NCBI GenBank assembly: GCA_027013225.1
Contig: JALUXU010000020.1
Coordinates: 239-64,238 of the forward strand
Reading direction: 5' to 3'
Length of the DNA stretch: 64,000 nt
Source of the DNA: Acidihalobacter sp.
GTDB taxonomy: Bacteria > Pseudomonadota > Gammaproteobacteria > DSM-5130 > Acidihalobacteraceae
Positions within the stretch are counted from its first letter, which is position 1. The number at the start of each line of letters is the position of its first letter. The notes beneath the pieces were generated by a model. The model ran no database searches. It worked only from the letters and a program-made list of their open reading frames with translations, and was not told the origin of the DNA. A program made the translations under genes and the position numbers. This document shows positions 6,800 through 51,707 of the stretch, in pieces.

Positions 6800-7620
6800 A
6801 CGTCAAGCCTCCTGACATCTTGCGCCGGATGCTCGCTCACAAGAGCGAAGAGTTGCGTCAGCGGGAAAGCCATATGCCCCTTTCTGAACTGCGTGAGCGC
6901 GCGGAGAACGCGCCCCCCACGCGTGATTTCGCTGCGGCCATCGAGGCTCATGTGATGGCAGGTCGTGCAGGAGTGATCGCTGAGATAAAACGGGCCTCGC
7001 CGAGCAAAGGGGTGATCAGGGAAGATTTTTCGCCCGCCGACATCGCTCGCCGCTATGCAGCTTGCGGAGCCGCCTGCCTGTCGGTTCTCACCGACCGCGA
7101 ATTCTTTCAAGGCGACGACGAGTATCTTGTCAGGGCGCGGATGGCGTGCGCTTTGCCGGTGTTACGCAAGGATTTTACCATCGACCCCTATCAGGTCTAT
7201 GAGGCCCGGGTGTTGGGCGCTGATTGTATCCTTCTGATCGTCGCCGCGTTGGATGACACTCGACTGAACGAGTTGTTGTGGCTGGCGCGTGAGCTCGATA
7301 TGGACGCCCTCGTTGAAGTGCATGACCGAGGCGAGCTGGAGCGCGCTCTGAATCTACCGGCACACCTGATAGGAGTGAACAACCGAGATCTGCGTGATTT
7401 TGAAACGCATATCGAGACCACATTGAATCTATTGCCCCTGATTCCCAAAGACCGCCGCATTATCACCGAAAGCGGAATACGCACTCGTGCTGATGTGAGT
7501 CGTCTGCGTAAGGCTGGAGTGCAGGGATTTCTGGTGGGCGAAACATTCATGCGCGCGCCCGATCCGGGGGCGGCGCTGGCCGAATTGTTCGATCTTGAAT
7601 GTTCTGGAGAAGGATCATGA
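6796..7620 (+). CDS. trpC: Indole-3-glycerol-phosphate synthase
   Basis: [36 protein letters not shown]. Confidence 0.97.
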
Positions 7621-33649: not shown

Positions 33650-35980
33650 ATGAGGGCTGTAATTTTTTTTGTCTTGCGGCGATTGCCGATCCTGGCCTTG
33701 CTCCTGATTTTGAGCGCGTCCGCGGCGGCCAACCATCTCGGCGACTCGGCCGATCCGTATCTGCGCATGCACGCCCACGATCCCGTGGACTGGTATCCGT
33801 GGGGGGCGGCCGCCCTGGAAAAGGCGCGGCGCGAACACAAGCTGATTTTCCTGTCCATCGGCTACCTGTCCTGTTACTGGTGCCATGTGGCTGACCGCGA
33901 GCTGTTCTCCGACCCGTCCATCGCCCGCCTGATGAACCGCTGGTTCGTCAACATTCTGGTCGATCGCGAGCAGCGCCCGGATCTGGACCGTGTCTACCAG
34001 CTTGCCGCGGTGGTTATGAACGGCCGCGGCGGCTGGCCGAACAATCTGTTCCTGACGCCCGACCTTAAGCCGTTTTACGTCGGCACCTACTTCTCGCCGC
34101 GGGACGATTCGCTGGGCGCGCCCGCCTTCGTGCCGCTGTTGCGGCGCATCCACCGCGAATGGGGCAGCGATCCCGCGGCGGTAATGGCCCGCGCCGACGC
34201 CGTGGTGGCGAAGATGCGGGCGCAGGGCGGCAGCGCGGGTGATGCGAAAATCCAGCCGCGGTGCTGGCTGCAACAGGCGGTGGCGACCAGCGCCGCGCAT
34301 TTCGACTGGCGCCACGGCGGTCTGCCCGCGGGCGCCGCCCAGGCCAAATTTCCGCGCCCGCCCCTGCTTGCGCTGTGGCTGAGCGCGGCGGTACACGAAC
34401 ACGATCCACGCGCCTCGGCTATGCTGCGCGAGACGCTGGACGCGATGGCCTACGGCGGCATCCACGACGCGCTGGGCGGCGGTTTTCACCGCTACGCCAT
34501 CGATCCCGCCTGGTCATTGCCGCATTTCGAGAAAATGCTCTCCGGCAATGCCCAACTGCTGGCCGTCTATGCCCGCGCCTGGGCCCGCGATCACGACCCC
34601 TTGTATCTCCTAGTGGCCCTTGACACCGCCGCCTGGCTGGCGCGGCGGCTGCAGACGCCGGCGGGCGGTTTCTACGCCGGCATGGCGGCGGCGACGCATG
34701 GCGAAAAAGGCGCCTATTATCTGTGGACGCGGCAGGAAATCGACGCCTTGCTGGGCACGGCGGGTGCCCGGCGCTTTTTCGAGCTCTACGCGCTCACGCC
34801 CATCAGCCACCCCAGCGCCGAGGCCCTGTTCAGCGGCGAGATCCCGGGCGTACTGCGCGTGCGCGAGGCGCTGGAAAGCCTGGGTGGGCGGCAAACGGCG
34901 CGGCGCATCGCGGCGCTGGCCCCGGAACGCGAACGGCTGCTCGCCGCCCGCCAGAAACGGCCCAGGCCGCAGATAGACCGGCTGATGCCGGTCGGCCTCA
35001 ACGGACTGGCCATAGGCGCATTCGCCCAGGCCGGGCTGGCCCTGCACCGGCCACAGCTGACCGGTATCGCCGCACGGGCGGCGGAGCGGATCTGGCGCGT
35101 GGCCTGGCAGGCGCGCTCCCGCACCCTGGCTCACGCGCTGCTGGCCGGGCGTCCCGACGGCGCCGGTCTGTTGGCCGACTACGCCCTGTTCGGTAACGGC
35201 CTGCTCGATTTGTACCACAATGACCGCCAGCCGCGTTGGCTGCACCGCGCGCGGCGGCTGGGCGATGCGCTCCTCGCCCGTTTCCGCCGCCCGGACGGCG
35301 CGTTGATGGAAACGCGGGGCGATGCCAGTCTCCCGGTCGCGCCGCGGGCGACGGGGGACATCCATCGCCCATCTGCTTTGTCGGCGGCCATCGTGCTGCT
35401 GCTGCGCCTGGGCGAACTCACCCATGACCCCCGTTACACGCGCGCCGCCCGCGAGGCGCTGCGAAACGCCGCGCCCGCGATCGCCGCCGCTCCCGAGCGC
35501 TGGGGCTATCTGCTCGCCCGGCTCAACGATCTGCCGTCACCTGTGCGCGAGGCCCTGGCCGCGCCGACGGGCGTCGAGGCGGCAGGCGGCGGCTTCCACA
35601 TCGCCACCAGCGCCGAGGCGGTCTCGGTGCTTGCCGAACGCGCGCCGGTCGATGGCCGCCCCGGCCTCGTCCTGCGCCTGCGCATCGCCCCGGGCTATCA
35701 CATCAACGCCGATCCGGCCTCCTTGCCCTACCTCATCCCCACCCAGGTGCGCCTCGAAAACCTGACGCCCGTGCGCGTCCATTACCCTGAAGGGCGATGG
35801 ATACACCCGGCCATCTCGCGCGAGGGTTTGCGCGTCTATACCGGCGAGGCGACGATCCGCGTCGTCTTGCCGCCCGGGGCAACGCCGGCCCGCGCCGTGC
35901 GCGGCACGCTGAGGATTCAGGCATGCAAGGCGCAAGTCTGCCTGCCGCCGGCCAGCCTGTCGTTTCGGGTGGGTAAGTAA
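33650..35980 (+). CDS. Exported YyaL/DUF255 thioredoxin-glycosidase-like protein with C-terminal DsbD-N-like domain
   Basis: PVDWYPWG, SCYWCH, DREQRPDLD, GGWP, GGFHRYA, PHFEKML, QACKAQVCLPP; start codon uncertain. Confidence 0.8.
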   Translation: MRAVIFFVLRRLPILALLLILSASAAANHLGDSADPYLRMHAHDPVDWYPWGAAALEKARREHKLIFLSIGYLSCYWCHVADRELFSDPSIARLMNRWFVNILVDREQRPDLDRVYQLAAVVMNGRGGWPNNLFLTPDLKPFYVGTYFSPRDDSLGAPAFVPLLRRIHREWGSDPAAVMARADAVVAKMRAQGGSAGDAKIQPRCWLQQAVATSAAHFDWRHGGLPAGAAQAKFPRPPLLALWLSAAVHEHDPRASAMLRETLDAMAYGGIHDALGGGFHRYAIDPAWSLPHFEKMLSGNAQLLAVYARAWARDHDPLYLLVALDTAAWLARRLQTPAGGFYAGMAAATHGEKGAYYLWTRQEIDALLGTAGARRFFELYALTPISHPSAEALFSGEIPGVLRVREALESLGGRQTARRIAALAPERERLLAARQKRPRPQIDRLMPVGLNGLAIGAFAQAGLALHRPQLTGIAARAAERIWRVAWQARSRTLAHALLAGRPDGAGLLADYALFGNGLLDLYHNDRQPRWLHRARRLGDALLARFRRPDGALMETRGDASLPVAPRATGDIHRPSALSAAIVLLLRLGELTHDPRYTRAAREALRNAAPAIAAAPERWGYLLARLNDLPSPVREALAAPTGVEAAGGGFHIATSAEAVSVLAERAPVDGRPGLVLRLRIAPGYHINADPASLPYLIPTQVRLENLTPVRVHYPEGRWIHPAISREGLRVYTGEATIRVVLPPGATPARAVRGTLRIQACKAQVCLPPASLSFRVGK

Positions 35981-35987
35981 ACCTGGT

Positions 35988-36752
35988 TTAGCCGCGAAGC
36001 TGGCGGTAAACGCTCTCGGCGATGCGCAGCAGCGCCGCGCGGTCGAGGCGGCCGGCCACGGCATAGGCCATGCCGCCGTCTATCCAGTAAAAAACCTCGA
36101 CCCCGTCCCGGCGCACGAAGCGAAAGGCGGTACGTTGCACGGGCCGGCGCGGCCAGGTGATATAGACGGTGATGCGTCGCCGCGCCGCATTCTGATACAT
36201 GAACTGCGCGGCGGGCCCGGCGCTGCCGGGCAGCAGGCTGCCGCCCATCAGGTGATAACCGTAGGCGGAAAGATCGGGCGCCTGCAGTGTATGGCCTAGA
36301 CGCCGCGACAGCCAGTGCATCAGCTCGGCCTTTTCGGCGGCGCCGACCATGACCGGATGCCGCGCTTCCGGCGCGTACACGGCGTAGGCCAGTGCTGCCT
36401 CCTGCGGCAGCCGGGGCGCCGCCGTGGCCAGGGGCACGGGTCCCGAACCCAGGGCAAGAAACCAGCCCAGGGCGATGCCCAGCCCGAAACTGGCCACGCC
36501 CGCCGCCAGCGCCGCCCGCCGACGCGGCCGCGGCGGCGCAACGCGCAGGCGGTCGGGTATCGGCTCGGCCAGCACGCCGTCGAAAGCCTGATGCAGGGCG
36601 CGGCGATGACGGCGGTAGGCGGCGGCGCGCGCGGCGAGCGCCGGATCCTGCTCTATCCGCGCCTCGATCTTGGCTTGCCGCGCCGGATCCAGACGCCCGT
36701 CCACCCAGGCCTGCAAGGTATCGTCGTCCAACACCCGGCGCTGCCCGCTCAT
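35988..36752 (-). CDS. Transmembrane anti-sigma factor
   Basis: LQAWVDGRL, TM, WLSRRLG...APDLS...GGSLLP...AQFMY. Confidence 0.88.
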   Translation of the reverse strand: MSGQRRVLDDDTLQAWVDGRLDPARQAKIEARIEQDPALAARAAAYRRHRRALHQAFDGVLAEPIPDRLRVAPPRPRRRAALAAGVASFGLGIALGWFLALGSGPVPLATAAPRLPQEAALAYAVYAPEARHPVMVGAAEKAELMHWLSRRLGHTLQAPDLSAYGYHLMGGSLLPGSAGPAAQFMYQNAARRRITVYITWPRRPVQRTAFRFVRRDGVEVFYWIDGGMAYAVAGRLDRAALLRIAESVYRQLRG

Positions 36753-37237
36753 CGGCCCTTCTCCGTTGGCGGCAGCTCGCCTTCCATCGCCCGGCGCAGT
36801 TTCTCTCGCCCGCGAGACAGGCGCGACATCACCGTGCCTCGAGGAATGCCGAGGATGGCGGCGGCTTGGGCATAGCTGAAATCCTCCAGCCCCACCAGCA
36901 GCACGACCTCACGAAACTCGGGCGGCAACTGCTGCAAGGCCCGTTGCAGATCGCGCACCATGAGCTGCTCTTCCTGCGTCGCCGCCACAGGCGCCAGATA
37001 AGCCTCATTCCATTCCAGCATGGGCCGTTCGGCACGGCGCTGGTTGACATAGAGGTTGTGCATCAGGGTGAAGAGCCAGGCGCGAAGATCACTGCCGCGC
37101 CGCCACAGGGAAAACTTGCGCAGCGCCCGTTCCAGGGTGTCCTGCACCAGATCGTCGGCGCGGTCGGGATCTCCCGCCAGGGCGCGGGCGTATCGGCGCA
37201 AGCGGGGTATGTGCGCTTCGAGCGCGGCGGCATCCAT
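36749..37237 (-). CDS. ECF RNA polymerase sigma factor
   Basis: ADDLVQDTLERA, WLFTLMHN, GTVMSRLSRGR. Confidence 0.93.
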   Translation of the reverse strand: MDAAALEAHIPRLRRYARALAGDPDRADDLVQDTLERALRKFSLWRRGSDLRAWLFTLMHNLYVNQRRAERPMLEWNEAYLAPVAATQEEQLMVRDLQRALQQLPPEFREVVLLVGLEDFSYAQAAAILGIPRGTVMSRLSRGREKLRRAMEGELPPTEKGR

Positions 37238-37245
37238 GCGGCAGC

Positions 37246-37274
37246 AAAAACGGGCGCGCCTCAGCGCGCCCGTT
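37246..37274 (-). terminator. Intrinsic terminator-like hairpin between the SnoaL gene and the ECF sigma gene
   Basis: AACGGGCGCGC-TGAG-GCGCGCCCGTT followed by TTT on the minus strand. Confidence 0.6.
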
Positions 37275-37280
37275 CATGGA

Positions 37281-37739
37281 TCAATAGCCGCCTGAGGCCA
37301 TTTCGTGCTTGTGCATGAGTTTCAGCAGGTGCGGGTCGATCTGCCAGATCTCGTCAACCAGCACGCCTTGCCGGAAGGTCATGACGTAGCGCACCGGGAT
37401 CGGTTTCATGCCCTTAAACACAACGTCCGCCGTGACTGTGGCGCCGGCAGGGTTGGCCGCCACCTTCATGTCCCAGATTTTGATCCTGAGTGGCCCGTTG
37501 GCCTTGGCGAACTTGTGCCACACTTGGCGGATCGCCGGCGTGCCGCGGTAATCGCCGTTCAGTGGGCCGCCGACCCACTGGAACACCGCGGCGGGCGAAT
37601 AGTCGGCCATGATCGCCGGCACATCGCCGCGGGCGATAGCGTGCAGATGCGCGCGCGCCTCGTGTGCGGGGTTCGCAAACGCCAGGGCAGGCACGGCGGC
37701 AGCGGTGAAAGCGAGCAACTTCAAAGCGGATTTGCGCAT
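37281..37739 (-). CDS. Exported SnoaL/NTF2-like protein
   Basis: Signal peptide; MADYSPAAVFQWVGGPL...DEIWQID. Confidence 0.75.
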   Translation of the reverse strand: MRKSALKLLAFTAAAVPALAFANPAHEARAHLHAIARGDVPAIMADYSPAAVFQWVGGPLNGDYRGTPAIRQVWHKFAKANGPLRIKIWDMKVAANPAGATVTADVVFKGMKPIPVRYVMTFRQGVLVDEIWQIDPHLLKLMHKHEMASGGY

Positions 37740-37774
37740 GCTTGGATCTCCTTCGATTGTTAGGATTGCAGCAG

Positions 37775-37803
37775 ATTAACACCTCAGGCATCGATCTATT
37801 CCC
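37775..37803 (-). promoter_or_regulatory. Putative ECF-sigma promoter
   Basis: GGGAAT-N17-GTTAAT upstream of the SnoaL gene. Confidence 0.45.
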
Positions 37804-37833
37804 GCTCAACGCAAAAAACGTTTCTTGAGCTGG

Positions 37834-38769
37834 TTATTCGCGCAAGGTCACTGGCAGGCTGAAGGTGATTTTTTCTTCCCGTCCAGGCAGTTCTTGCGCG
37901 ACGACCGCTCCCAGCCTTTGCAGATAACGAACTACGTCCTGGACCAGCGTTTCCGGGGCCGAGGCACCGGCGGTCACGCCGATGTGACGCTTGCCTTCCA
38001 GCCAGGCTGGATCAATGTCGATGGCACTGTCGATCAGGCGGGCGGTGACGCCTGAAGTTTCGCTGAGTTCGCGCAAGCGGTTCGAGTTGGAGCTGTTAGC
38101 CGATCCGACCACCAGAATCAGATCGCAGCGGGTGGCGAGATCACGTACTGCATCCTGCCGGTTCTGAGTGGCATAGCAGATGTCGTCCTTGCGGGGGCCT
38201 TCGATGTTGGGAAAGCGCTTGCGAAGCGCGCCGATTACCACGCGGGCATCATCCACCGACAGGGTGGTCTGGGTGACGAAGGCAAGATGATCGGGGTCCC
38301 TGACTTCGAGTTTTTCTACATCCTGCGGTGAATCGACAAGGTACATGGTGCCACCGTAAGACGTGTCGTATTGGCCCAGAGTGCCTTCGACTTCGGGATG
38401 ACCGCGATGACCAATGAGAATGGTTTCACGCCCTTCGCGGGCGTACTTGCTCACCTCGATATGGACTTTGGTGACCAACGGACAAGTCGCGTCAAACACA
38501 TTGAGTCCGCGTGATTCCGCGTCACGGCGCACCGCCTGGGATACGCCGTGGGCACTGAAAATAACGGTGGCTCCGTCGGGGACTTCATCCAGTTCCTCCA
38601 CGAACACCGCGCCTTTCTCACGCAAGCCGTCGACGACAAAGCGGTTGTGCACCACTTCATGGCGCACATAGATCGGTGCGCCGAAGCGCTCCAGCGCGTG
38701 TTCTACGATTTCGATGGCTCGGTTGACGCCGGCGCAGAAGCCCCGGGGGTTTGCAAGCAGAATATCCAT
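37834..38769 (-). CDS. ispH: 4-hydroxy-3-methylbut-2-enyl diphosphate reductase
   Basis: [29 protein letters not shown]. Confidence 0.97.
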
Positions 38770-38874
38770 GGATTGACTCGCTCGTGATGGGTAGGGTTTG
38801 TTGGCAAGAGCGAACATTAGCCTATCTTGGCGGCGAGTTCATCCCCCGCCGTTTCAATAAATGCCTCAATGCGA

Positions 38875-40338
38875 TCAGCTCTGGGGATCGAGCGACAGGA
38901 CTCCGGCAGTGCGGTCGAGGTCTTCGGCGATCTCGCGGAACTGCTCCAGCGCCGCCTCCAGATCCTCGACGATCTCCTGGGCGATGACCTCCGGCGGCGG
39001 CAGGTTTTCGGTCTCGTTCAGGGATTCGTCCCTGAGCCAGAAGATGTCCAGGCTGGCCTTGTCACGGGCCACCAATTCTTCGTAGTCGTAGGCGCGCCAC
39101 CGGCCTTGCGGGTTGTCCTCGCGCCAGGTGGCCTTGCGCTCGTGGCGCTTCTCGGGCTTGTAGAGCGCGACGAATTCGTCCAGATTCTCGCGCCTGAGCG
39201 GATGGGTCTTGAGGGTGAAGTGCTTGTTGGTGCGCAGGTCGTAGATCCAGAGTTTCTTGGTCCAGGGTTTCTCCGAGGCCGGTTTCTTGTCGAAGAACAG
39301 CACGTTGTCCGGCACCACCACGGCGGCGCGGCCGTTGACCTTGAGCAGGGTCTTGATGTGCTGCACGAAGTTGAGCTGCTTATTGGAGGTGGTGGTCCAG
39401 AAATCGTCGCGCTCGACCGTGTCCTTTTCCTTGCTGACCTTGCCTTCCTCGCCGACGATGGTGGTGCTGCTCTTCTTGCCGAAGGGCGGATTGGTGAGCA
39501 CCAGGTTGAAGTGCTCGCCCGGGTCGGCGGCCAGCGAATCGCCCACCTCGATGGGCTCATACTCCTGGCTGCCGATGCCGTGCAGCAGCAGGTTCATGGT
39601 GCACAGGCGCGCCGTGGCCTGCACCAGCTCCCAGCCCTTGAAGGTCTTTTCCTTGAGGAACTTGCGTTCCGTCTTGGTCATGTGAGGATGGTTCTTCACC
39701 ACATAGTCGTGCGCGGCGAGCAGAAAGCCGCCGGTGCCGCAGGCCGGGTCGCAGACCGTCTCGCCGGGTTCGGGCTGCATCACATCCACGATGGCCTGAA
39801 TCAGCGGACGCGGGGTGAAATACTGTCCGGCGCCGGACTTGGTGTCCTGGGCGTTCTTCTCCAGCAGGCCCTCGTAGGCGTCGCCCTTCACGTCGGCGCT
39901 CAGCGACGACCAGTTTTCCTTGTCGATGAGATCCACGATCAGCCGCCGCAGCTTGGCCGGGTCCTGACAAATTCATCAGGAATGAATTTGGACGCACGGA
40001 GTGCGCCCGCAGGGTGAGCGCCAGGGATGGCGCGAATCAAATTTGTTCTGCGCCTTGTTGAAGATCAGTCCCAGCAGGCCCTTGTCCCGGCCCAGCGTCT
40101 CCAGGGTGTGACGATAGTGATCGAACAGCGCGTCGCCGTCCTTGTTGATCAGGTTCTGCCAGCCGTAACCTGCGGGAACCGGACTCGGTTGCTTGTAGGG
40201 CGGCCGCGAGCGCTCGTCGGCCATCTTCAGAAACAGCAGATAGGTCAGCTGCTCGACGTAGTCGTCGTAGGACATGCCGTCGTCGCGCAGCACGTTGCAG
40301 TAGTTCCAGAGTTTCTGGACGATGTTGGCAGGAGTCAC
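38875..40338 (-). pseudogene. hsdM: Type I R-M methyltransferase, interrupted by a 72-bp insertion and apparently internally deleted
   Basis: IVQKLWNYC N-terminus; GQYFTPR, DPACGTGGF, NPPF; in-frame stops inside the insert at 39967-40038. Confidence 0.9.
39967..40038 (+). mobile_element. 72-bp four-hairpin insertion element (copy A)
   Basis: Removing it restores KAQNKF-QDPAKLRRL in hsdM. Stems: CAAATTCAT/ATGAATTTG, CGCAC/GTGCG, CCC/GGG, GCGCC/GGCGC. Confidence 0.8.
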
Positions 40339-40691
40339 GTCTTCCCCTCTTTGGCCGGCAAGATCAGGCGCAGTCGTGTGGCGAGCGCAGGGATGTCGTC
40401 TGTCGCTGTGTGATACAGGAGTGCATGATCGATCCGCCCGTATTCGTGGGCCAGGATATTCCGTATCCCGATGATTTCACGCCAGGCAAGTTCGGGGTGC
40501 GCATCACGGAAGACTTGAGACAGTGTGCGAGCGGTTTCACCAACCAGTTCCACATCCCGCTCGATCGCTCGCTGAAGCAATCGATTGTCGTGGAATGCCG
40601 CCTCGTCGTGCTCTTTGAGCAGATCCGCGATCTCTTCACAGATTTGCAGCATGTCCCAAAGATACGCCGCATCGCGTTCATCAGGCTGCAT
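40335..40691 (-). CDS. HepT/DUF86 HEPN ribonuclease toxin
   Basis: RNILAHEY = RX4HXY motif; AYLWDML N-terminus. Confidence 0.88.
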   Translation of the reverse strand: MQPDERDAAYLWDMLQICEEIADLLKEHDEAAFHDNRLLQRAIERDVELVGETARTLSQVFRDAHPELAWREIIGIRNILAHEYGRIDHALLYHTATDDIPALATRLRLILPAKEGKT

Positions 40692-41016
40692 ACAACGTCT
40701 CCAGATCCCGCATGATGGTCCGCCGACGATAGGGATTTTCGAGCACGACGGGGGTGACGAGATCGACCCGGCGTCCGCCGAACAGCCGCGAGAATTCATC
40801 CGATATCGTGACCATTTTCCCCAGCGATGGCGCCTTCCCCTCCTCGAACTCCACCATCAGGTCGATGTCGCTGTCCGGCCTCAGCTCGCCGCGCGCCGCC
40901 GAGCCGAACAGCGACAGGCGGCGGATGTCATATTTTCTCGCCAATGCCTGTAACGCCGCCCGAGGCACCTCGAGGCCCTCGGCGATCACGATCATGTCAT
41001 CGGTCTGCCCGTTCAT
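40681..41016 (-). CDS. MntA-like minimal nucleotidyltransferase antitoxin
   Basis: FGSAARGELRPDSDID = GSX10DXD; overlaps the HepT start. Confidence 0.88.
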   Translation of the reverse strand: MNGQTDDMIVIAEGLEVPRAALQALARKYDIRRLSLFGSAARGELRPDSDIDLMVEFEEGKAPSLGKMVTISDEFSRLFGGRRVDLVTPVVLENPYRRRTIMRDLETLYAA

Positions 41017-41024
41017 CTTCAGCC

Positions 41025-41440
41025 TCAGGATACCACCGCCGTCGTGGACTCGCTGGCGGCATCCGCATCGGTCGGGCCCGCGCCCTCATGGCTCGGAACC
41101 AACCGGCCCGAGAAGGCGGCGGCGAGGATGGACTGGCGCAGGCGCTCGGCGCGCTGGAGGTTGGCCTCAACTTGGGCCTCAGTTTCGTGGAGGATGGAGA
41201 GGCGGCGGTCGACTTCGGCGACGATGCGGTGTTGTTCGGCTAGTGGTGGTAGTGGCAATCCGATTGAGCGGAAACGGCCCAAGCTTATTTTCAGCTGAGC
41301 AACGCCTTTCGTTATTCCTAAATATTGCTTGTGAACCAGTTCCGATTCAATTGCATACATGAAGAATCGTCCGGAAAGGACGCCCTTTGAAAGCCTTAAC
41401 TTTATACAGTCCGCAGTAATGATTGCTTTTGGTTTGCCCC
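41025..41440 (-). pseudogene. hsdS: 3' fragment of type I R-M specificity subunit
   Basis: End of an AT-rich TRD followed by LPLPPLAEQHRIVAEVDRRLS...LRQSILAAAFSGRLV; no start codon. Confidence 0.85.
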
Positions 41441-42132
41441 GCGCACCTTGGGGTCGTGCAGGGGCTTGACGGCTTGCTGGATGAGCTTTTCGCGGGCGGC
41501 GGCGAGGGCTTGGTCGGGGATGGGCCGGTCGTCGTCGGGGGCGAGGCCGAGATCGGCCCGGTCCTGTTCGATGTGGCGGTCGGGGTCGAGGGCCTCGACG
41601 ATGCGATGGCTGAGGTCCTTGACGCCGAGGCCCCCGGTCAGCTCGCGCACCTACTGGTCGTCTTCGGCGCTCATGCGGTGTTCCATGCGGGCCAGGCGGC
41701 CGGCGAGGGAGGTGAGCACGTCTTCGTCCGTCGAGCCGAAGGCGACGGCCTGCATGAGCTTGTCGAAGGCGACGGTGGGCTTGCGCTCCATGGGACGGGA
41801 GTCGGTCTTGTCCTGCTCGCAGACGCCGACGGCATCGACGATGACGAAATGGTCCTTGACCTTGGCGTCCGGGGTGACGCTCTGCAGGTCGTCGGGCTTG
41901 ATCACGCGCACGCCGCGGCCCTTCATCTGCTCGAAGAATGCACGGGACTTGACCGCGCGCAGGAACATGACCACCTCCACCGCCTTGATGTCGGTGCCGG
42001 TGGCGATCATGTCCACGGTGACGGCGATCCTGGGCATGGGGCTGGTGCGGAACTCCTGGATCAAGTCCCGGGGTTTCTTGCCGGTGGTGCGGTAGGTGAT
42101 CTTCTGGGCGAAGTCGTTGCCCTTGGCGAATT

Positions 42133-42206
42133 GTCGATGGCGCCTCCTGTGCCATCGCCCTTCGGGCGCACTACGTGCGACCAAATCGGCTGTCCTGCCG
42201 ATTTGT
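42133..42206 (-). mobile_element. 74-bp four-hairpin insertion element (copy B)
   Basis: Removing it restores VREEFAKGNDFAQKITY. Stems: CAAATCGGC/GCCGATTTG, CGCAC/GTGCG, CCC/GGG, CGATGGC/GCCATCG. Confidence 0.8.
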
Positions 42207-42755
42207 CCTCGCGCACGATCTCGACGATGTTCTCGGCGTGCGCATCGTCCTTGGCGAAGATGAGGGTCTTGGGCACCCATTCGCGGCCGGGGAAGATCTC
42301 GGTGAACAGCTTGTCGCGGTAGGTCTGGATGATGGTGCGGATCTGGTCGGGGGCGACCACGTCGCGGTCGAGCTGGTTGGGGTCGTATGCGAACTCGTCG
42401 TCGAGCTGTTCCCAGCGTTTCTTGCGGGTGTCGCGCTCCATGACCTGCACCGCGTAGCCGGATTCCACCTTGCTGCCCTGCTCGCTGATGGCGGTGCGGA
42501 TGCGATAGACGTCGTAGTTGACGTTGACGCCGTCGGCCACGGCCATCTCGTGGTTGTATTCCATCACCAGGTTCTGGTGGAAGAAGCCGAAGGTCTGCTT
42601 GGACGGCGTTGCGGTGAGGCCGATGAGGTAGGCGTCAAAGTATTCGAGCACCTGCGCCCAGAGGTTGTAGATGGAGCGGTGGCATTCGTCGGTGACGATG
42701 ATGTCGAAGGTTTCGATGGGAATATTCGGGTTGTATGCAATCGGCTCCGGTCTGC

Positions 42756-42860
42756 GCGGGAGGCCGCCAGCCGGCGTTGCGGGACTCGCTGCGCTGCTCA
42801 TTGCGCCATCCGGCAATTGCGCTGCCCGCTTGCTTTGCGCCTTGGCTGGCGGCCTCCTGC
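42756..42860. repeat. Palindromic MITE/REP-like element inserted in frame in hsdR
   Basis: Inverted repeats GCGGGAGGCCGCCAGCC (42756-42772) and GGCTGGCGGCCTCCTGC (42844-42860), 16/17 match; encodes a low-complexity extra peptide. Confidence 0.65.
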
Positions 42861-43867
42861 TGTGCCCGGTGGTATCCATCAGGGCGCCCAGTTGATCAAC
42901 CGAGATTTCTTCCAGATCTTCCTCCAGCTCGCGGCCCTTGAGCATGGCGTACAGACGCTGGATGGTGCCGATGCAGACCCGCGCGGTGGTGTCGAGGGTG
43001 TTCGATTGCAGGCGCTGGACGATGTATTCCTCGGTGAACTTGAAGTTGTTGTAGGGCGAGCGGTACTGCTGGAACTCCTTGAGGGTCTGATCGGCGAGGT
43101 TGCCGCGGTCCACCAGGAACAGCACCCGGCGCGCCCCGGCGAACTTGATCAGCCGGTAGATGAAGCTGATGGCGGTGAAGGTCTTGCCCGAGCCGGTGGC
43201 CATCTGGATGAGCGCCCGCGGGCGGTTCTCGCGCAGGGACTGCTCCAGGTTGCGGATGGCCGTGATCTGGGCGGGCCAGAGGCCTTCCTCGATCAGCGGC
43301 GGCATCTGCTGCAGGCGGGCGAGGAAGGTGCCATGTCGGTTTGCGTAAGCGGGCGGCTGCTCGGCGACCTGATCAAATGGTACCGTTTCCAGCCACGCGG
43401 CGAGGGTCTCGGGCCGGTGGAAGGCGAAGATGGGTCTGGATCGGGGCTCCGGGTCAAGGCCGTTGGTGAAGCGCGTCTCGGCGCCGGTGGACTGATAGGA
43501 GAACGGCAGCGGGTTGCGCCAGGCCGGCAGGTTGTCCGGCAGGCCGGTGGTGTACTTGGCCGCCTGCACCTCCACACCGGTGAGCGTGGCGCCCGCCTTC
43601 TTGGCCTCGATGACCCCGGCGGCCTTGCCATCGATGTACAAGCAGGTAGTCCGCGAAGCCGTGGCCGGCCTTGAGGGGAAACTCGCGTATGGCGATGCCG
43701 CGGGCGGCGTGGATGTTGGTGGCGCCGGCGTCGAAGATCGCCCAACCGGCCTGCTTGAGCAGGCGGTCTATGCTTTCTCTGGCCTGATCTTCCAATGCGC
43801 TGGATGCCATCCGGCTGCCTCCCTTTTGCGTGATGCTCCCCGACCCAAACCGATCCAAATGCGGGGC

Positions 43868-43899
43868 TTGACCTTGCACCTTGCTACAGACTTTATACT
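43868..43899 (+). promoter_or_regulatory. MerR-type long-spacer promoter for the copper operon
   Basis: TTGACC-N20-TATACT upstream of the cueR-like gene. Confidence 0.6.
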
Positions 43900-43941
43900 T
43901 GCTCTGAATCCAACGTTACGCGTATAGAGCAGAGGCAAGGC

Positions 43942-44351
43942 ATGGATAAACTTGTGACCATCGGCGCCCTGGCGCGCACCGAACAGCTGGCGCCGGAGAC
44001 GCTGCGCTATTACGAGCGGGTGGGGCTGATTGAGCCGGCCCGCCGCACCGCATCGAACTATCGTTTGTACGGGCCGGAGGCTCGGCGGCGGTTGCGCTTC
44101 ATCCGCCGCGCGCAGGCGCTGGGCTTCTCGCTGGCCGAGATCGGGGAGCTGCTTTCTCTGCACGCCCGGCCCGAAGCGGACATGGGCGAGGTCAAGGCCC
44201 TGGCTGATGAAAAGATCGCCGACATCGAGCGCAAGATTCGTGATCTCGAACGCATGAAGGCGGGGCTCGAAGGCTTGGCCGAGCAATGCCCGGGCCACGG
44301 TTCCACCGCCGAATGCCCCATCCTGGGGGCGCTGCTGAGCGAGGATGCCTG

Positions 44352-44352
<1 letters not shown>
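43942..44352 (+). CDS. cueR: MerR-family metal-responsive regulator, CueR-like
   Basis: TLRYYE HTH; [13 protein letters not shown]; lacks the extra Cys used by divalent-metal MerRs (DMGEV). Confidence 0.75.
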
Positions 44353-46820
<2,468 letters not shown>

Positions 46821-46853
46821 TTTGATCATCCATTCCAACAAGGAGGCATCACC

Positions 46854-47252
46854 ATGAGCAAAATCGTATTTTCCGTTACCAGTCCCATTGATTACGACGC
46901 CACCATCGAGCGCGTCACCGAGGCGCTCAAGAGCGAGGGCTTCGGCGTGCTCACCACCATCGACGTGGCCGCCACGCTGAAGAACAAGCTCGGCGTGGAG
47001 CACAAGCCTTACGTCATTCTCGGCGCCTGCAATCCGAACTACGCCCATCAGGCGCTGCAGGCGGTGCCGGACATCGGCGCGCTGCTGCCCTGCAACGTGG
47101 TGGTGCGCGAGGAGGACGACGGCCGCGTCAGCGTGGTGTTCATGGATCCCGAGTCGGTGCTGGGCCTTATCGCCGATCCCACGGTGGAAAAAGTCGGCCA
47201 TGAAGTGGCCGAGAAGCTGCACCGCGTGGCCGAAGCCGTGGCCAAGGCCTGA
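46854..47252 (+). CDS. DUF302 protein
   Basis: GFGVLTTIDV, ILGACNP, LLPCNVVV. Confidence 0.9.
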   Translation: MSKIVFSVTSPIDYDATIERVTEALKSEGFGVLTTIDVAATLKNKLGVEHKPYVILGACNPNYAHQALQAVPDIGALLPCNVVVREEDDGRVSVVFMDPESVLGLIADPTVEKVGHEVAEKLHRVAEAVAKA

Positions 47253-47279
47253 ATATTCAACACACAACAGGAGAGAAAT

Positions 47280-47486
47280 ATGAGCGACATCAAACTCAAA
47301 GTCACCGGCATGACCTGCGAACACTGTGTGCGCGCCGTCACCAAGGCGCTCGAAAGCGTGCCCGGCGTGGAAAAGGCCGAAGTCACCTTGAAGCCGGGCG
47401 GCGCGGTGGTACACGGCGAGGCCGACCCCGAGCAGTTGATCGCAGCAGTACGCGAAGAAGGCTACGACGCCGAAGTGCAGGACTAG
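47280..47486 (+). CDS. copZ: Copper chaperone (HMA)
   Basis: VTGMTCEHC, 68 aa. Confidence 0.88.
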   Translation: MSDIKLKVTGMTCEHCVRAVTKALESVPGVEKAEVTLKPGGAVVHGEADPEQLIAAVREEGYDAEVQD

Positions 47487-47489
47487 GTC

Positions 47490-47729
47490 ATGGCCGAGGT
47501 TTTGCTTTACACCAGCCCCGGCTGCCCGGACTGCGCGGCCGTCAGGCGCTATCTCGAAGCGCACGGCATCACTTTCGAGGAACGCGACGTGACCGCGCCG
47601 GGCGTGGCCGAGGAGGCCAAATCCCGCTACGGCGTGCGCGTCGCGCCCATCACCGTGATCGGCGATAAGGTGCTGTACGGCACCTTCGCTGAGCAAAAAC
47701 CGCAGCTCGACGCCGCGTTCGGCGGCTGA
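47490..47729 (+). CDS. Glutaredoxin-like protein
   Basis: YTSPGCPDC, VAP cis-Pro. Confidence 0.85.
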   Translation: MAEVLLYTSPGCPDCAAVRRYLEAHGITFEERDVTAPGVAEEAKSRYGVRVAPITVIGDKVLYGTFAEQKPQLDAAFGG

Positions 47730-47750
47730 AGGCTGTCTCACACGAGGAAA

Positions 47751-48446
47751 ATGGAAATGAACAGGAAAGTTTTCACACGCCTTGCCCTGGCGGCCGCCTG
47801 CGCCGCCCTCGTTGTTCCGCCCGCGTTCGCTCAGGGCATGATGGGTGGCGGCCAAGGTGGCCCCGGCATGATGGGTGGCGGCCAAGGTGGCCCCGGCATG
47901 ATGGGTACGATCAACAATCGCCCCGTGGCCCCCGGCTGGGGCGGTGCCACCTGGAATTATGCGCAGGTGAAACGCTATCTGGCTGCTTCGGAGGCGGACG
48001 GCCGCGCCGAGGGCAAGCGCGTGGTGTTCCAGGGGCATGCTGTGACCATCGACATGGTGGCGGTGCAACCCGGGCATCCCGACACCACCTTCGAGGTGCA
48101 TGGCATCACCAATCCGACTCTGGTGGTGCCGGCCGGCGCGACCGTGCATCTCAATCTTGTCAACATGGACTACGGCAACAACATGGAACACGGCGTGATC
48201 ATCACCGCCGCGCCGCCGCCCTATCCGCGCTATCTAATGCAGACCATGGCCCAGTACGGCCCGCCTCTGGCCGGCATCTCGCCGCCGATCCCGTGGCGCA
48301 GCAAGAAAGACCTGAATCAATCGCTGTTCGCCGCGGCCGGTACGACTTTCACCGCCCCGAGCCGACCCGGTGTCTACTGGTACGTATGCCAAACGCCTGA
48401 GCATGCCGAGAAGGGCATGTACGGCAAGTTCGTGGTGACGGGATGA
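47751..48446 (+). CDS. Rusticyanin/sulfocyanin-like type-1 blue copper protein
   Basis: Signal peptide; FEVHGITNPTLVVPAGATV; ligands H(MEHG), C-H-M in YVCQTPEHAEKGMYG. Confidence 0.82.
   Translation: MEMNRKVFTRLALAAACAALVVPPAFAQGMMGGGQGGPGMMGGGQGGPGMMGTINNRPVAPGWGGATWNYAQVKRYLAASEADGRAEGKRVVFQGHAVTIDMVAVQPGHPDTTFEVHGITNPTLVVPAGATVHLNLVNMDYGNNMEHGVIITAAPPPYPRYLMQTMAQYGPPLAGISPPIPWRSKKDLNQSLFAAAGTTFTAPSRPGVYWYVCQTPEHAEKGMYGKFVVTG
47835..47906 (+). repeat. 30-bp tandem repeat (2.4 copies) encoding GMMGGGQGGP
   Basis: GGCATGATGGGTGGCGGCCAAGGTGGCCCC x2 plus GGCATGATGGGT. Confidence 0.95.
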
Positions 48447-48456
48447 GGAGCCGCAT

Positions 48457-48717
48457 ATGCCTTATGGATACGGCCCTGGCGGTTTCGGTGGCATGTGGTG
48501 GGGGCCTGTCGTGGGTTTCCTGATCATGCTGGCGGTGCTGGCCGCTGTGGTGTGGGTGATCGTCGCAGTGGCGCGCTCGGCCTGGAAGGGACGAGAGGAA
48601 CCTCCACCACCATTGCCGCGCCGCGACAGCGCGCTGGAAGCGTTGCGCGAACGCTACGCCCGCGGCGAGATCGACCGCGACACCTACGAACGCATGCGGC
48701 GCGACCTTGAGCGCTGA
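48457..48717 (+). CDS. SHOCT-domain small membrane protein
   Basis: TM then ALEALRERYARGEIDRDTYERMR. Confidence 0.88.
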   Translation: MPYGYGPGGFGGMWWGPVVGFLIMLAVLAAVVWVIVAVARSAWKGREEPPPPLPRRDSALEALRERYARGEIDRDTYERMRRDLER

Positions 48718-48727
48718 AAGGTATCTC

Positions 48728-50317
48728 ATGAAACGAAACGAAGACATAAACCATCCGCGCCGACGCCTGCTGCTGCACGGCCTTGCCGCTGGCGGCGCGC
48801 TGGCCCTCGGGCTGGGGCCACGCGCCGCATCAGCGGGCGGCACACAAAGCGCGCCTGCCGCCGGCGCGTTCTTGCGCTCGCTGCCGGTGCCGGCGCCGCT
48901 GCATGGCCGGGCTGATGCAAGGGGCGTGCTCCACTATGCCTTGCGTGCCGGGGGCGGCCTCAGCGAGCTGATCGCCGGCGTACGCTCGCCCACCTGGGGC
49001 TACAACGGCGCGCTGCTCGGCCCCACCTTGCGGATACCGCGCGGCAAACCGGTGCAGATGCATGTCAGCAACGGACTGGGGGTGCCCACCACCCTGCATT
49101 GGCACGGCGCCCAGGTGCCGGGGAAGGTGGACGGCGGGCCGCATAACACCATCGCGCCGGGTGCCGTGTGGACGCCGGCTTTCACCCTGGACCAGCCGGC
49201 CGGCACCCTCTGGTATCACCCTCATCCGGATACCTACACCGGCCCGCAGGTGTATGCCGGGCTGGGCGGCTTTTTGTTCATCGATGATGGCGAGGATGCG
49301 CGGCTCGGCTTGCCGCATACCTATGGCGTGGACGATCTGCCTCTGGCGATTCAGGACCGGCGCCTGGACGCCGACGGGCATCTTGCCTACATGGACCGGA
49401 TGCCGGACATGATGGGCATGAAAGGCGACCGTTTCCTGGTCAACGGCGTCGAGCAGCCCCATGCCGAGGTGCCGGCCGGCTGGCTGCGCCTGCGCCTGCT
49501 CAACGCATCGAACGCACGAATCTACAATCTGGCCTTCGCTGACGGGCGTGAATTTCATGTGATTGCCGGCGATGCGGGTCTGCTGGAGCAGCCGGTGCCG
49601 CTACGCAGTCTGCTGCTCGCACCGGCCGAACGTGCCGAGATCGTGGTCGATCTGCGTCGCGAGCAGGGGCGCTCACTGGTGCTGCGCAGCGATTCCGGCG
49701 CCGTGGTGCCCGCGCTGTACCGCATGCCCATGGCCGCCGACGCCTTCGACCATGGCCGCTTCGATCTGCTGCAGTTGCGCGTCGGCCCGCCCTCGGGGCG
49801 GCTGGCGCGGCTGCTTGACCGCCTGGGCAGCGTGCCGGCCCTGAGCACGGACGGTCCCACCCGGGACTTCAGCCTTGAGGGCATGATGCAAGGCGGCATG
49901 ATGAACATGATGCGGGCGCGTTTCGGCATGCGCGGCCAGGACGGCCCCGGCGGCATGAGCATGGGCATCGGCGGCTACGACCTGTTCGCCATCAATGGCC
50001 GTTACATGCGCATGGACGTGATCGATGCGCACATGCCGCTGGGAAAAACCGCGTTATGGCGGGTGCGCAACGTCAGCACCATGGCGCATCCTTTCCACAT
50101 GCACGGCGCCTCGTTCTTGATCCGTAGCCGCAACGGCCGGCCGCCGCCCGCCCACGAGCGTAGCTGGAAAGATGTGGTACTGGTAAGGCGGGGCGAAACC
50201 GTGGAGTTGCTGATTCCCTTTCGCCATCGCGCGGGGGACGAGCATCCCTACATGTATCACTGCCATATCCTGGAACACGAAGACAACGGCATGATGGGGC
50301 AGTTCACGGTGAGCTGA
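48728..50317 (+). CDS. Multicopper oxidase (CueO-like), Tat-exported
   Basis: RRRLL Tat; HWHG, WYHPH, HPFHMHG, HCHILEHEDNGMM; Met-rich loop. Confidence 0.93.
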   Translation: MKRNEDINHPRRRLLLHGLAAGGALALGLGPRAASAGGTQSAPAAGAFLRSLPVPAPLHGRADARGVLHYALRAGGGLSELIAGVRSPTWGYNGALLGPTLRIPRGKPVQMHVSNGLGVPTTLHWHGAQVPGKVDGGPHNTIAPGAVWTPAFTLDQPAGTLWYHPHPDTYTGPQVYAGLGGFLFIDDGEDARLGLPHTYGVDDLPLAIQDRRLDADGHLAYMDRMPDMMGMKGDRFLVNGVEQPHAEVPAGWLRLRLLNASNARIYNLAFADGREFHVIAGDAGLLEQPVPLRSLLLAPAERAEIVVDLRREQGRSLVLRSDSGAVVPALYRMPMAADAFDHGRFDLLQLRVGPPSGRLARLLDRLGSVPALSTDGPTRDFSLEGMMQGGMMNMMRARFGMRGQDGPGGMSMGIGGYDLFAINGRYMRMDVIDAHMPLGKTALWRVRNVSTMAHPFHMHGASFLIRSRNGRPPPAHERSWKDVVLVRRGETVELLIPFRHRAGDEHPYMYHCHILEHEDNGMMGQFTVS

Positions 50318-50337
50318 GTCCGGGCGGCCCTGGCCGT

Positions 50338-50952
50338 TCAGGAGACGTAGCCGAGCATCACGCGGGTGACGAAATTCTGCGTTTCGGGGTAGGGTGGGAT
50401 GCCGTCATAGCGCTTCACCGCGGCGGGGCCGGCGTTGTAGGCCGCCAGCGCCAGGCGCAGGTTGCCCTGATAGCGCCTGATCAGGCCGGCTAGATAGCGC
50501 GTGCCGGCCTCGAGATTGGCGAGCGGGTCGAAAGGATGCGTCACCCCGAAGCGCCGCGCCGTGTCCGGCATCAGCTGCATCAAGCCTTGCGCCCCGACCA
50601 CGGAAACCGCCTTGGGGTCGAAGCACGATTCGACCGCGATCACGGCGCGCACCAGCTTCCAGGGCACGCCGCTTTGCGCGGCGACCTGCTTGATCATCGG
50701 CGTATAGCGTTCGGCGCGTTGCTTGAGCGTCTTGTTGCTCAGGCCCAGGCAGGACTTCCAGGCCGGCGGGCGGCCGTAATGGCGCACTCCCTGCAAGCGG
50801 TAGTTTTTCGGCGCCACCGGATGGTCGGTGAAATACACCTCACCCTGCGCGTCGCGGTAGATATAGACCTTTTCCGCCTGCGCCGGCATGGACAGGCCCA
50901 GCCAGCACCCGCAGGCCAGGGCGGCCAGCAAGGCGTGGGGCAAGCGGCTCAT
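50338..50952 (-). CDS. Lytic transglycosylase (DUF4124 + SLT)
   Basis: AVESCFDPKAVS, GLMQLMP, AAYNAG, ETQNFV. Confidence 0.88.
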   Translation of the reverse strand: MSRLPHALLAALACGCWLGLSMPAQAEKVYIYRDAQGEVYFTDHPVAPKNYRLQGVRHYGRPPAWKSCLGLSNKTLKQRAERYTPMIKQVAAQSGVPWKLVRAVIAVESCFDPKAVSVVGAQGLMQLMPDTARRFGVTHPFDPLANLEAGTRYLAGLIRRYQGNLRLALAAYNAGPAAVKRYDGIPPYPETQNFVTRVMLGYVS

Positions 50953-51686
50953 GATAGCACCGTCCAGGCCACACCCAGGTCGTCCAGGCCCGACTGCATG
51001 GCCGCAAAGGCCGCCTCGGCCTGCGCTCGCGGCCCGCGCACCCCCAGCTCGATGCGCCCTCGCCGGCCGGTGCTAGGCAGGCTGGACACCTGGACCTCGG
51101 GCCAGGCGGCGAGCACGGTTTCCATCAACGGCACCAGCGCGCTTTCCGGCGTGTCTTCGGCTCGCAACCGCCGCTCCACCGGCGGTTGCGGGTCGAACAA
51201 ATGGCGGTAGCGGGTGTCCAGCACCCATTCCGCCATCGGCCAGGCCATGTCGGGGAAACCGGGCAGGAAATGGTGGTCGCCCACGCTGAAACCGGGCACG
51301 CGGTTGACCGGATTGGGAATCAGGGTCGCGCCTTGCGGCAGTTCGGCCATGCGGATGCGGATGGGATAGGCCTCGCGGCCGAAACGTTCTTCGAGGATGA
51401 CCACCGCTTCCGGGTGGCGCGCCAGCGGCCGCCCGCTGGCGGCGGCGCATTCGCGGGTGAGGTCGTCCGGTGTGCCGCCGATGCCGCCGAAGCTGAACAC
51501 CAGGTCGCCCGAGGCGAAGGTTTCGCGCAAATGGCGGGTGAGACGGGCGCGATCGTCGCCGACGATGCGCACCCAGGCCACTTCCAGCCCCCGCGCCGCA
51601 AGCACTTCCCGCATGTGCGGGAAGTGCTTGTCCTCACGCTTGCCGCGCGTGAGCTCGTCTCCGATCAGCAGCAGGCCGATGTCCAT
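50949..51686 (-). CDS. CinA-like molybdopterin-binding domain protein
   Basis: IGDEL, GGIGGTPDDLT, LPGFP. Confidence 0.87.
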   Translation of the reverse strand: MDIGLLLIGDELTRGKREDKHFPHMREVLAARGLEVAWVRIVGDDRARLTRHLRETFASGDLVFSFGGIGGTPDDLTRECAAASGRPLARHPEAVVILEERFGREAYPIRIRMAELPQGATLIPNPVNRVPGFSVGDHHFLPGFPDMAWPMAEWVLDTRYRHLFDPQPPVERRLRAEDTPESALVPLMETVLAAWPEVQVSSLPSTGRRGRIELGVRGPRAQAEAAFAAMQSGLDDLGVAWTVLS

Positions 51687-51707
51687 GGTCCGGCCAAGGC
51701 GCGGCGT

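Follow-up and report, generated by a model that had tools for sequence, protein, structure and literature searches.

A family of small structured mobile elements in Gammaproteobacteria, with two copies in a decayed type I restriction–modification locus of Acidihalobacter

The DNA analysed here, which we call the window, is a stretch of 64,000 nucleotides (nt) from an Acidihalobacter sp. contig (JALUXU010000020.1) that carries the genes of a type I restriction–modification (R-M) system, and its methylase gene, hsdM, is interrupted by a segment of 72 base pairs (bp). This segment, copy A in what follows, is genuine: a small mobile element, rich in hairpins, has inserted there precisely. It is near-certain that copy A belongs to a widespread family of structured mobile inserts in Gammaproteobacteria, and the family has apparently not been described before. 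The overall account that we favor, with a probability of roughly 0.55, is that of a widespread, non-autonomous structured element that moves as folded single-stranded DNA (ssDNA) and is processed in trans.

A precise insertion in hsdM

Copy A lies between G39966 and A40039 of hsdM, a type I methylase gene on the minus strand. The insertion point is CTG^AAATTT, where one A is assignable to either side, so that A...C and C...A are both valid readings of the insert. Across the insert, which is in antisense orientation, the hsdM frame reads KAQNKF-DSRHPWRSPCGRTPCVQIHS, then two in-frame stops (TGA TGA), then IC-QDPAKL; in silico deletion of exactly positions 39967-40038 yields an uninterrupted HsdM of 463 amino acids (aa) with HsdM_N and N6_Mtase domains. 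What do related genes look like at this position? Eight thousand HsdM homologues were found at E <= 1e-50, the best of them 83-90% identical and 493-501 aa long, and the closest intact homologues (P0001, P0002, P0003, P0009 and P0024) all read NKAQNKFQDPAKL, without the insert. Additionally, a related metagenome contig (run X4) provides an empty site at the DNA level, joining 39966 straight to homologous sequence past the insert. The window, which comes from a hydrothermal-vent metagenome, is 99.9% identical to a contig of a Thiohalobacter sp. metagenome-assembled genome (MAG) in which the same copy A is present.

Copy A has no terminal inverted repeats, its left end (ACAAAT...) and right end (...GAATC) not being complementary. 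Comparison of occupied with empty sites reveals no target-site duplication of 2 bp or more, either for copy A or for copy B, a second family member in the window that interrupts hsdR; there is only the single ambiguous A. These results bear out an earlier, sequence-only reading of the window, which had proposed that the 72-nt sequence at 39967-40038 is a precise insertion at CTG^AAATTT with neither terminal inverted repeats nor an obvious target duplication, and that its clean removal restores the interrupted hsdM sequence. That reading had named beforehand, as an outcome that speaks against it, the presence of the segment in the closest intact hsdM, and it is from the closest homologues, all of them, that the segment is missing. 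The other alternative that it had raised, that copies A and B are the only ones in existence, is ruled out by the match of at least 120 genome loci to the core pattern described below. Its claim that the insert kills the methylase stands as far as the two in-frame stops go, but hsdM, hsdR and hsdS all carry independent lesions.

A fold that brings both ends together

As ssDNA, copy A folds with a predicted energy of -21.2 kcal/mol, compared with -9.9 +/- 2.1 kcal/mol for dinucleotide shuffles (z = -5.5), and none of the 200 shuffles (0/200) folded as well; for the complementary strand, z = -6.2. The four consecutive hairpins of the sequence-only reading fold as stated, but a fifth helix of 2 bp, in which 39991-39992 pair with 40037-40038, had been overlooked. 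The parts of the element are given in Table 1.

Covariation supports all of the predicted helices, including the fifth. In an alignment of 48 full-length family members, paired cells amount to 94-94.6%, whereas shuffles give 75% and slid partners 24-45%, and cells with compensatory changes number 236 versus 65 in shuffles. The linker (GA/GT) is paired with the 3' terminus (TC/AC) in 48/48 members, with pair 28/76 being A-T in 30 and T-A in 16. Across 70 distinct copies, the linker/terminus combinations include GA/TC (37 copies), GT/AC (20), AA/TT (2), CA/TG (1) and GG/CC (1), and the mutual information of the variable linker/terminus pair is 0.95 bit versus 0.3-0.5 bit for background pairs. 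Hairpins 2 and 3 are invariant among the copies found by pattern because the search pattern itself fixed them, which is an ascertainment effect; in divergent copies, hairpin 2 covaries (CGGCC-AGA-GGCCG, CAACC-GGA-GGTTG, CGAAC-AAC-GTTCG, CCGC-GAA-GCGG), and hairpin 3 occurs as CCCC-GAA-GGGG and CCCC-GCA-GGGG. Family-wide, the stem of hairpin 1 varies and its loop keeps the motif C-N-G-G-R-A; a loop motif, CNGGRA or AGGGAT, is common to hairpins 1 and 4.

Two consequences follow for the geometry of the predicted fold. Since zero nucleotides are left unpaired between helices, the 2-bp helix and hairpins 2, 3 and 4 form a gapless four-way junction, and since the 2-bp helix is stackable on hairpin 1, the terminal nucleotides of the element come together at one point, and the two flanks with them. 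The alignment is also asymmetric between the strands: there are 24 G:T cells versus 8 A:C cells, and the 33 tandem G.A/A.G cells of hairpin 4 are strand-specific. In nearly all copies, the loops of hairpins 2 and 3 are GNA closed by C:G, and C-GNA-G triloops make unusually stable DNA mini-hairpins. In other words, the G:T wobbles, the tandem G.A pairs and the triloops indicate that it is one folded strand that matters, and probably that this strand is ssDNA.

A widespread family

The family was surveyed by scanning one genome per species with a 22-nt core pattern, CGCACGNAGTGCGCCCGNAGGG. At least 120 loci match, mostly in Gammaproteobacteria; those among the matches listed include Woeseiaceae, Steroidobacteraceae, Lysobacterales, Wenzhouxiangellaceae, Thiohalomonadales, Chromatiales, Pseudomonadales, Legionellales and Francisellaceae. 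Outside the Gammaproteobacteria, the matches listed comprise Zetaproteobacteria and one Methyloversatilis, and there is one viral contig. The flanks vary from locus to locus, and the plan of the element is constant, with a length of about 72 nt (range 55-90) that is exactly 72 nt in 32/48 copies. A search with a structure-aware covariance model, as the sequence-only reading had advised, recovers additional, divergent copies with a differing core. A cultured species, Aeromonas caviae, carries two variants of the element, and the sole match in the plasmid collection is a chromosome-sized record of Aeromonas caviae; the phage and E. coli collections hold no copy. In Rfam, even with a threshold of E < 10, positions 39800-42400 have only chance-level matches (E >= 0.8), and in the six family loci examined only tRNAs reach the gathering score. 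Our literature searches returned no paper containing the 18-nt core strings, and no fitting description in the literature on T-loop insertions, tRNA-linked repeats and palindromic elements.

Several loci show unusual arrangements of the element. At L114 (1-247), four copies of a 63-nt variant lacking hairpin 2 are joined head to tail with no spacer, as though every copy had gone into the G^A junction that its predecessor left. Inverted pairs with 17-35 nt between the copies occur at L037 and L095. At L120, one element is split (5653-5726 and 7083-7154) by a 1.36-kb segment that holds a secreted-protein gene and a truncated IS30-like N-terminus, with about 48 nt of the element interior duplicated on both sides. 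Finally, two Pseudomonadales/Gammaproteobacteria MAGs carry the element inside a classical MITE (a miniature transposable element with inverted repeats) of about 330 bp, whose inverted repeats read TAGCCCGCATATCTCACCGAT, and the MITE was then amplified with its passenger (Table 1).

How the element may move

How might so small an element move? We propose that it would do so as folded ssDNA, with a structure-specific enzyme encoded elsewhere in the genome cutting and rejoining at the two juxtaposed junctions. This proposal draws on the precise insertion without duplication or terminal inverted repeats, the strand-specific covarying fold and the DNA-type mini-hairpins, and further on the pairing of the terminal dinucleotide to an internal guide, the similarity of the end hairpins and the self-targeting tandem copies. 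The likeliest enzyme would be one similar to the TnpA of IS200/IS605, acting in trans, and the nearest mechanistic analogue would be the HUH/Y1 "peel-and-paste" of IS200/IS605 and REP/RAYT, where REP denotes repetitive extragenic palindrome. In IS608, guide sequences located 5' to the hairpin foot pair with the cleavage sites and so allow their recognition, and excision produces a single-stranded circle (PMC3201880); a related precedent is found in REP/RAYT systems (PMC3333891, PMC8266576). By analogy, hairpins 1 and 4, which are of similar size and have the loop motif in common, may be two protein-binding sites, and the GW/WC pairing may act as a right-end guide/cleavage-site pairing. HUH-like chemistry for the element is a tentative assignment that we would put somewhat below an even chance.

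A number of results weigh against movement as folded ssDNA processed in trans. None of the approximately 120 loci has a linked gene for a Y1, a RAYT or another recombinase, and all-against-all clustering of the open reading frames (ORFs) of 121 loci yields no enriched family; a recurring response regulator and ABC ATPases near elements are chance neighbors. There is no autonomous, gene-carrying version among the loci examined. A left-end cleavage-site guide was not found either, the mutual information between flank and element being at background, and compared with the 4-5 nt of IS200/IS605 the left-flank motif, of about 2-3 nt, is short and loose. Orientation relative to GC skew at first appears biased, at 60:31 toward the G-rich strand, and becomes 34:24 (p = 0.24, not significant) without the tRNA-linked copies; as a test of replication-strand bias, the comparison is confounded by tRNA orientation. 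Lastly, copies A and B, 2 kb apart, are oppositely oriented. We also considered a variable guide that selects the target and rejected it, since flank and element do not covary.

Target sites and the association with tRNA genes

Cataloguing of targets, another step advised in the sequence-only reading, covered 64 distinct sites. In 41/64 the element is preceded by G, and in 53/64 it starts with A; the flank logos read (T)(C)G on the left, A...WC for the element, and on the right A, then A/G, then a pyrimidine. T-loops (GGTTCG^AATCC) or anticodon loops (TTCG^AAA, TTCGC^AA) of tRNAs account for at least a third of the sites, and the targeted tRNAs, as judged with ARAGORN and by inspection, are 3' or 5' fragments next to an intact gene for tRNA-Ser, -Phe, -Arg or -Leu, or else additional members of tRNA arrays. 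The family favors TTCG^AAT-type sites, chiefly in the T- and anticodon loops of dispensable tRNA fragments. An intron in the T-loop of a functional tRNA was rejected as an explanation: in silico excision followed by ARAGORN gave almost no full tRNAs, and the interrupted tRNAs are fragments. General targeting of hairpin loops was set aside as well; a stem of at least 4 bp surrounds 34% of the sites versus 19% of control G^AA sites, an enrichment that is only modest and is driven by the T-arms.

The surroundings of the tRNA-linked copies raise an alternative. Downstream of many tRNA-Ser genes, a unit composed of tRNA 3' end, terminator, spacer, GGTTCG and element is repeated once or twice, and the units end before the displaced original tRNA 3' end. 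At L075, L068 and L120, 1.6-2.4 kb of cargo with no integrase lies between an intact tRNA-Phe and the element-bearing fragment. Could the element then be an attC-like, structure-specific site for a trans-acting tyrosine recombinase, with tRNA T-loops as the primary (attI-like) site? In such a scheme, recombination between T-loop and element junction would excise and integrate circles made up of a tRNA 3' end, cargo and element; insertion would restore the tRNA and build cassette arrays, and the two inserts of the window would represent "empty cassettes" that used secondary G^AA sites in hsdM and hsdR. The arrays that follow intact tRNAs, in which AATCC..CCA with terminator or cargo leads to ..GGTTCG and an element before the displaced 3' end (Table 1), fit this scheme, as do the integrase-less islets behind tRNA-Phe, and recognition by structure on one strand parallels attC. 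Additionally, of the tRNA 3' fragments examined, all but one are preceded by the hairpin element or a variant of it; the remaining one, an Aeromonas fragment with an intact T-arm and no element, speaks the other way. The tRNA fragment is, however, contiguous across the element, as expected if the element had inserted independently into an attR fragment that was already there; relative to the displaced fragment, elements are found in either orientation; and the arrays are obtainable by unequal crossing-over between repeated 3' ends. The attC core sites, R'' (RYYYAAC) and R' (GTTRRRY), are absent, the element ends being ACAAA... and ...WC with termini that are not paired to each other, and no intI-like or other recombinase gene stands beside the arrays; no recombinase family recurs in the loci that could point to an intI/attI platform. 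We regard the attC-like scheme as unlikely.

Two further observations concern tRNA-linked loci. The islet at L075 (504-2494), of 2.4 kb and with no integrase, contains what by appearance, from the ORF sequences alone, is an AbiEi/AbiEii-like toxin-antitoxin pair. Downstream of tRNA-Ser at L048, L039 and L013, the spacers between terminator and element hold a reverse-complement copy of the tRNA 3' end and T-arm, which together with the terminator makes a long palindrome.

Copies within protein genes

Most frames of the 48 aligned copies are stop-free, and copies do sit within reading frames. For example, sense copies in dnaE of two species (L051 3011-3082, L092 2386-2457) add 24 residues, TVS.GEKRDARSAPEGHAPG.ARV, and leave the 1,190-aa frame open; the insert lies in a linker before NRATLMATLD of DNA polymerase III alpha, an essential protein with a translated copy. 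A phage peptidase-like gene has a sense copy right after its ATG, again with an open frame, and cobO has an antisense copy that is open. Antisense copies in IS91 transposase genes have their stop in the same frame as in the hsdM of the window.

The IS91-family (HUH Y2) transposase genes are hit at L089 (3996-4817), L104 (1615-1686) and L115 (5244-5315). One such gene at L089 holds three copies within 1 kb, and the site NLTRL^HGVFAP is common to L104 and L115, with the third copy of L089 (3996-4070) close by. IS91 as the mobilizer was considered and rejected: the genes are victims that carry stop-bearing antisense copies, and the flanks are unlike the GTTC/CTTG targets of IS91.

These intragenic copies bear on a second alternative, in which a RAYT (TnpA-REP) would service the element as a repeat of the REP/REPIN type, that is, a domesticated, mostly extragenic repeat and no true insertion element. 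Folded ssDNA hairpins, a moderate copy number per genome and the inverted pairs at L037 and L095 are all in keeping with such a repeat, and since RAYTs are single-copy genes they are not expected beside most copies (PMC3333891, PMC8266576); none was seen within the 8-kb loci. It is the architecture and the sites that differ: the element has five helices in 72 nt versus one palindrome of 20-40 nt, no GTAG-like tetranucleotide precedes a single palindrome, many copies are intragenic (hsdM, hsdR, dnaE, cobO, IS91 transposase, phage gene), and insertion is precise and site-specific, with empty sites for comparison. We therefore consider a RAYT-serviced repeat quite unlikely, and the statement of the sequence-only reading that the element is neither a classical MITE nor a simple REP is upheld, given five helices, intragenic copies, and the lack of terminal inverted repeats, duplication and GTAG.

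A third alternative, that RNA is the functional form, as a structured module or as an element that is removed or tolerated in transcripts and spreads via an RNA intermediate, would suit the strong covariation, the excess of G:U-type over A:C-type pairs, the targeting of loops in tRNA genes, i.e. of transcribed hairpins, and the intron-like juxtaposition of the ends by helices, but it is very unlikely in view of the lack of an Rfam match, the occurrence of both orientations relative to host genes and tRNAs, the non-functional state of the targeted tRNAs as fragments, the absence of conserved unpaired core nucleotides of ribozyme type, the use of GNA triloops rather than GNRA or UNCG tetraloops, and the open sense copies in dnaE and the phage gene, for which removal is not needed. 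For the same reason, that sense copies are open in frame, and with copies A and B oppositely oriented to their genes, removal of the insert at the RNA level, a possibility aired in the sequence-only reading, is unlikely.

The decayed restriction–modification locus

The covariance model finds only copies A and B in the window, the next-best match scoring 10.8 bits. Copy B is 74% identical to copy A, with the stems of hairpins 1 and 4 altered in a compensatory way, and in translation it frameshifts hsdR. Its empty site is documented by contigs from metagenomes X2, X3 and X4, which skip exactly 74 nt (42131->42206) with a 1-nt ambiguity.

The R-M locus is a decayed pseudogene cluster that was damaged independently of the inserts. 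The hsdM gene has a 120-bp in-frame deletion at 39295, between two NVLF-coding repeats, that removes 40 conserved methylase residues (EGGAGETIRRKLL...GVKA), and the Pfam N6_Mtase match spans only profile positions 3-191 of 311; at 39295, related metagenome contigs part from the window into the missing sequence, which encodes EGGAGETIRR. In hsdR, a premature stop follows ...RMSAEDDQ and the 5' end is truncated, with only the tail of the HSDR_N domain left, and hsdS is a fragment, its Methylase_S match (approximately 41180-41420) lying inside an overlapping 376-aa ORF. In light of the hsdM deletion, the hsdR stop and truncation, and the hsdS fragment, the inserts are two among several lesions, and both copies had a part in the loss of a type I R-M system whose decay was already under way.

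Why are both copies of a 64-kb window found within the same 5 kb? The probability of two copies falling so close together by chance is small. Local hopping, as L089 and L114 bring to mind, is one possible reason; passage of the R-M locus through a single-stranded stage or through a host with an active element is another, and tolerance of insertions in genes that were already dispensable is a third possible reason. We found no evidence in favor of a selected anti-restriction role for the inserts.

Table 1. Features of the window and sets of family loci referred to in the text
Feature	Coordinates	Strand	Remarks
Copy A, complete 72-nt element	39967-40038	+ (folding/top strand)	covariance model R1 87.7 bits, E = 1e-19
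Helix 1 (hairpin 1)	39968-39990	+	39968-39976 with 39982-39990, loop CAGGA; 9/9 pairs compensatory
Linker GA	39991-39992	+	pairs with 3'-terminal TC; closes junction, stacks on helix 1
Helix 3 (hairpin 2)	39993-40005	+	CGCAC-GGA-GTGCG, C-GNA-G triloop mini-hairpin
Helix 4 (hairpin 3)	40006-40014	+	CCC-GCA-GGG, second GNA triloop mini-hairpin
Helix 5 (hairpin 4)	40015-40036	+	40015-40022 with 40029-40036, tandem G.A/A.G, loop AGGGAT; 8/8 pairs compensatory
3'-terminal dinucleotide TC	40037-40038	+	partner of linker 39991-39992
hsdM pseudogene	38875-40338	-	split by copy A; 120-bp in-frame deletion at about 39295
Copy B, 74-nt element	42133-42206	-	in minus-strand hsdR at GAGG^AATTCG; R1 63.4 bits
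hsdR pseudogene	41651-43641	-	split by copy B; premature stop; only tail of N-terminal domain
tRNA-array loci			L058, L007, L011, L116, L039, L008, L048, L102, L070, L096, L076
MITE-nested element loci			L006, L035, L061, L062, L079, L081, L105, L110, L111, L117

Other features of the window stand beside these. An MNT nucleotidyltransferase and HepT-like RNase toxin-antitoxin pair (40335-41016, minus strand) separates the hsdS remnant from hsdM. At 47835-47894, 30 bp are perfectly duplicated in tandem (GGCATGATGGGTGGCGGCCAAGGTGGCCCC x2), beside GMTCxxC metal-binding repeats (44383-44644, 47293-47319). The G+C content changes from 52-60% (1-34000) to 60-71% (34000-52000), with the step at about 34 kb, and GC skew is positive on the plus strand throughout; the step and the skew suggest a mosaic of acquired segments.

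Significance

If our account is correct, a structured DNA of very small size has reached many lineages of Gammaproteobacteria as well as some proteobacteria outside that class, with carriers that include Woeseiaceae, Steroidobacteraceae, Lysobacterales, Chromatiales, Thiohalobacter, Legionellales, Francisellaceae, Aeromonas and Zetaproteobacteria. The covarying 2-bp "guide" helix that unites both junctions would offer a concrete model for precise excision and insertion, and the T-loop preference would explain the recurrent tRNA 3' fragments that are preceded by hairpin clusters downstream of tRNA genes. For protein evolution, the element would be a source of 24 codons added to essential proteins such as DnaE, and it can also inactivate defence genes, as in the R-M locus of the window. 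There is a practical application as well: with a covariance model for this family, calls of pseudo-tRNAs and split genes in MAGs would become cleaner.

A further prospect, which we hold to be unlikely, is an undescribed gene-capture system, lacking a linked integrase, that would use the five-helix element as its recombination site, with a structure-specific enzyme acting in trans to recombine the folded element with tRNA T-loops. If so, the DNA between a T-loop and a downstream element would be excisable as a circle carrying a tRNA 3' end, and its re-insertion in the same tRNA of another genome would be harmless to the tRNA, making for an integron-like platform on tRNA genes; the solo 72-nt inserts of hsdM and hsdR would be off-target "empty cassettes."

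Comparison with known systems

The element is best understood next to other small mobile DNAs. With IS200/IS605 and the gene-less PATEs, which depend on a Y1 HUH TnpA, it has in common the lack of terminal inverted repeats and target duplication, a hairpin at each end, one active strand and insertion beside a short conserved flank motif. In IS200/IS605, the cleavage site is set by Watson–Crick pairing at the hairpin foot (PMC3201880), to which the pairing of GW with the terminal WC would correspond here, and the ends are likewise brought together, for excision as a circle. The element differs in being only 72 nt long with hairpins that abut the ends directly, in a guide pairing that encloses three hairpins rather than one (the gapless four-way junction), in the lack of a detected left-end guide and of a linked TnpA gene, in a flank motif of only about 2-3 nt, and in showing no significant lagging-strand bias.

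REP, BIME and REPIN sequences with their RAYT are alike in being small, non-coding, folded as ssDNA, presumably mobilized in trans by a single-copy gene, and occasionally arranged in inverted pairs. The differences are the lack of a GTAG-type motif, the multi-helix structure and the frequent precise, site-specific intragenic insertions of the element. Integron attC sites share structure-based recognition of one folded strand, covarying stems, arrays of short units with cargo, and the usability of simple secondary sites; the element, in contrast, has no R''/R' core sites, is not a single long hairpin with extrahelical bases, has no intI nearby, and has its crossover at G^A(A) and not at G^TT. 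Classical MITEs (Correia/NEMIS, ERIC, QMITE1/2) are also small, non-autonomous and multicopy and may sit in genes, but they have terminal inverted repeats and direct repeats of 2-11 bp, as exemplified by the inverted and direct repeats of the Coxiella QMITEs (PMC5896051), and the present family has neither.

Rickettsia palindromic elements are another instructive comparison. They too are structured repeats that lie in frame in protein genes, including essential ones, and are translated, and no mobilizing enzyme is known for either. They belong to a different phylum, differ in sequence and are about 100-150 bp long; to our knowledge, and judging from a review (PMC10969869), tRNA T-loop targeting and an end-juxtaposing fold have not been reported for them. 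Small non-autonomous structured mobile repeats are a known kind of DNA, and what the present family adds to that kind is an end-juxtaposing five-helix fold and a preference for tRNA loops.

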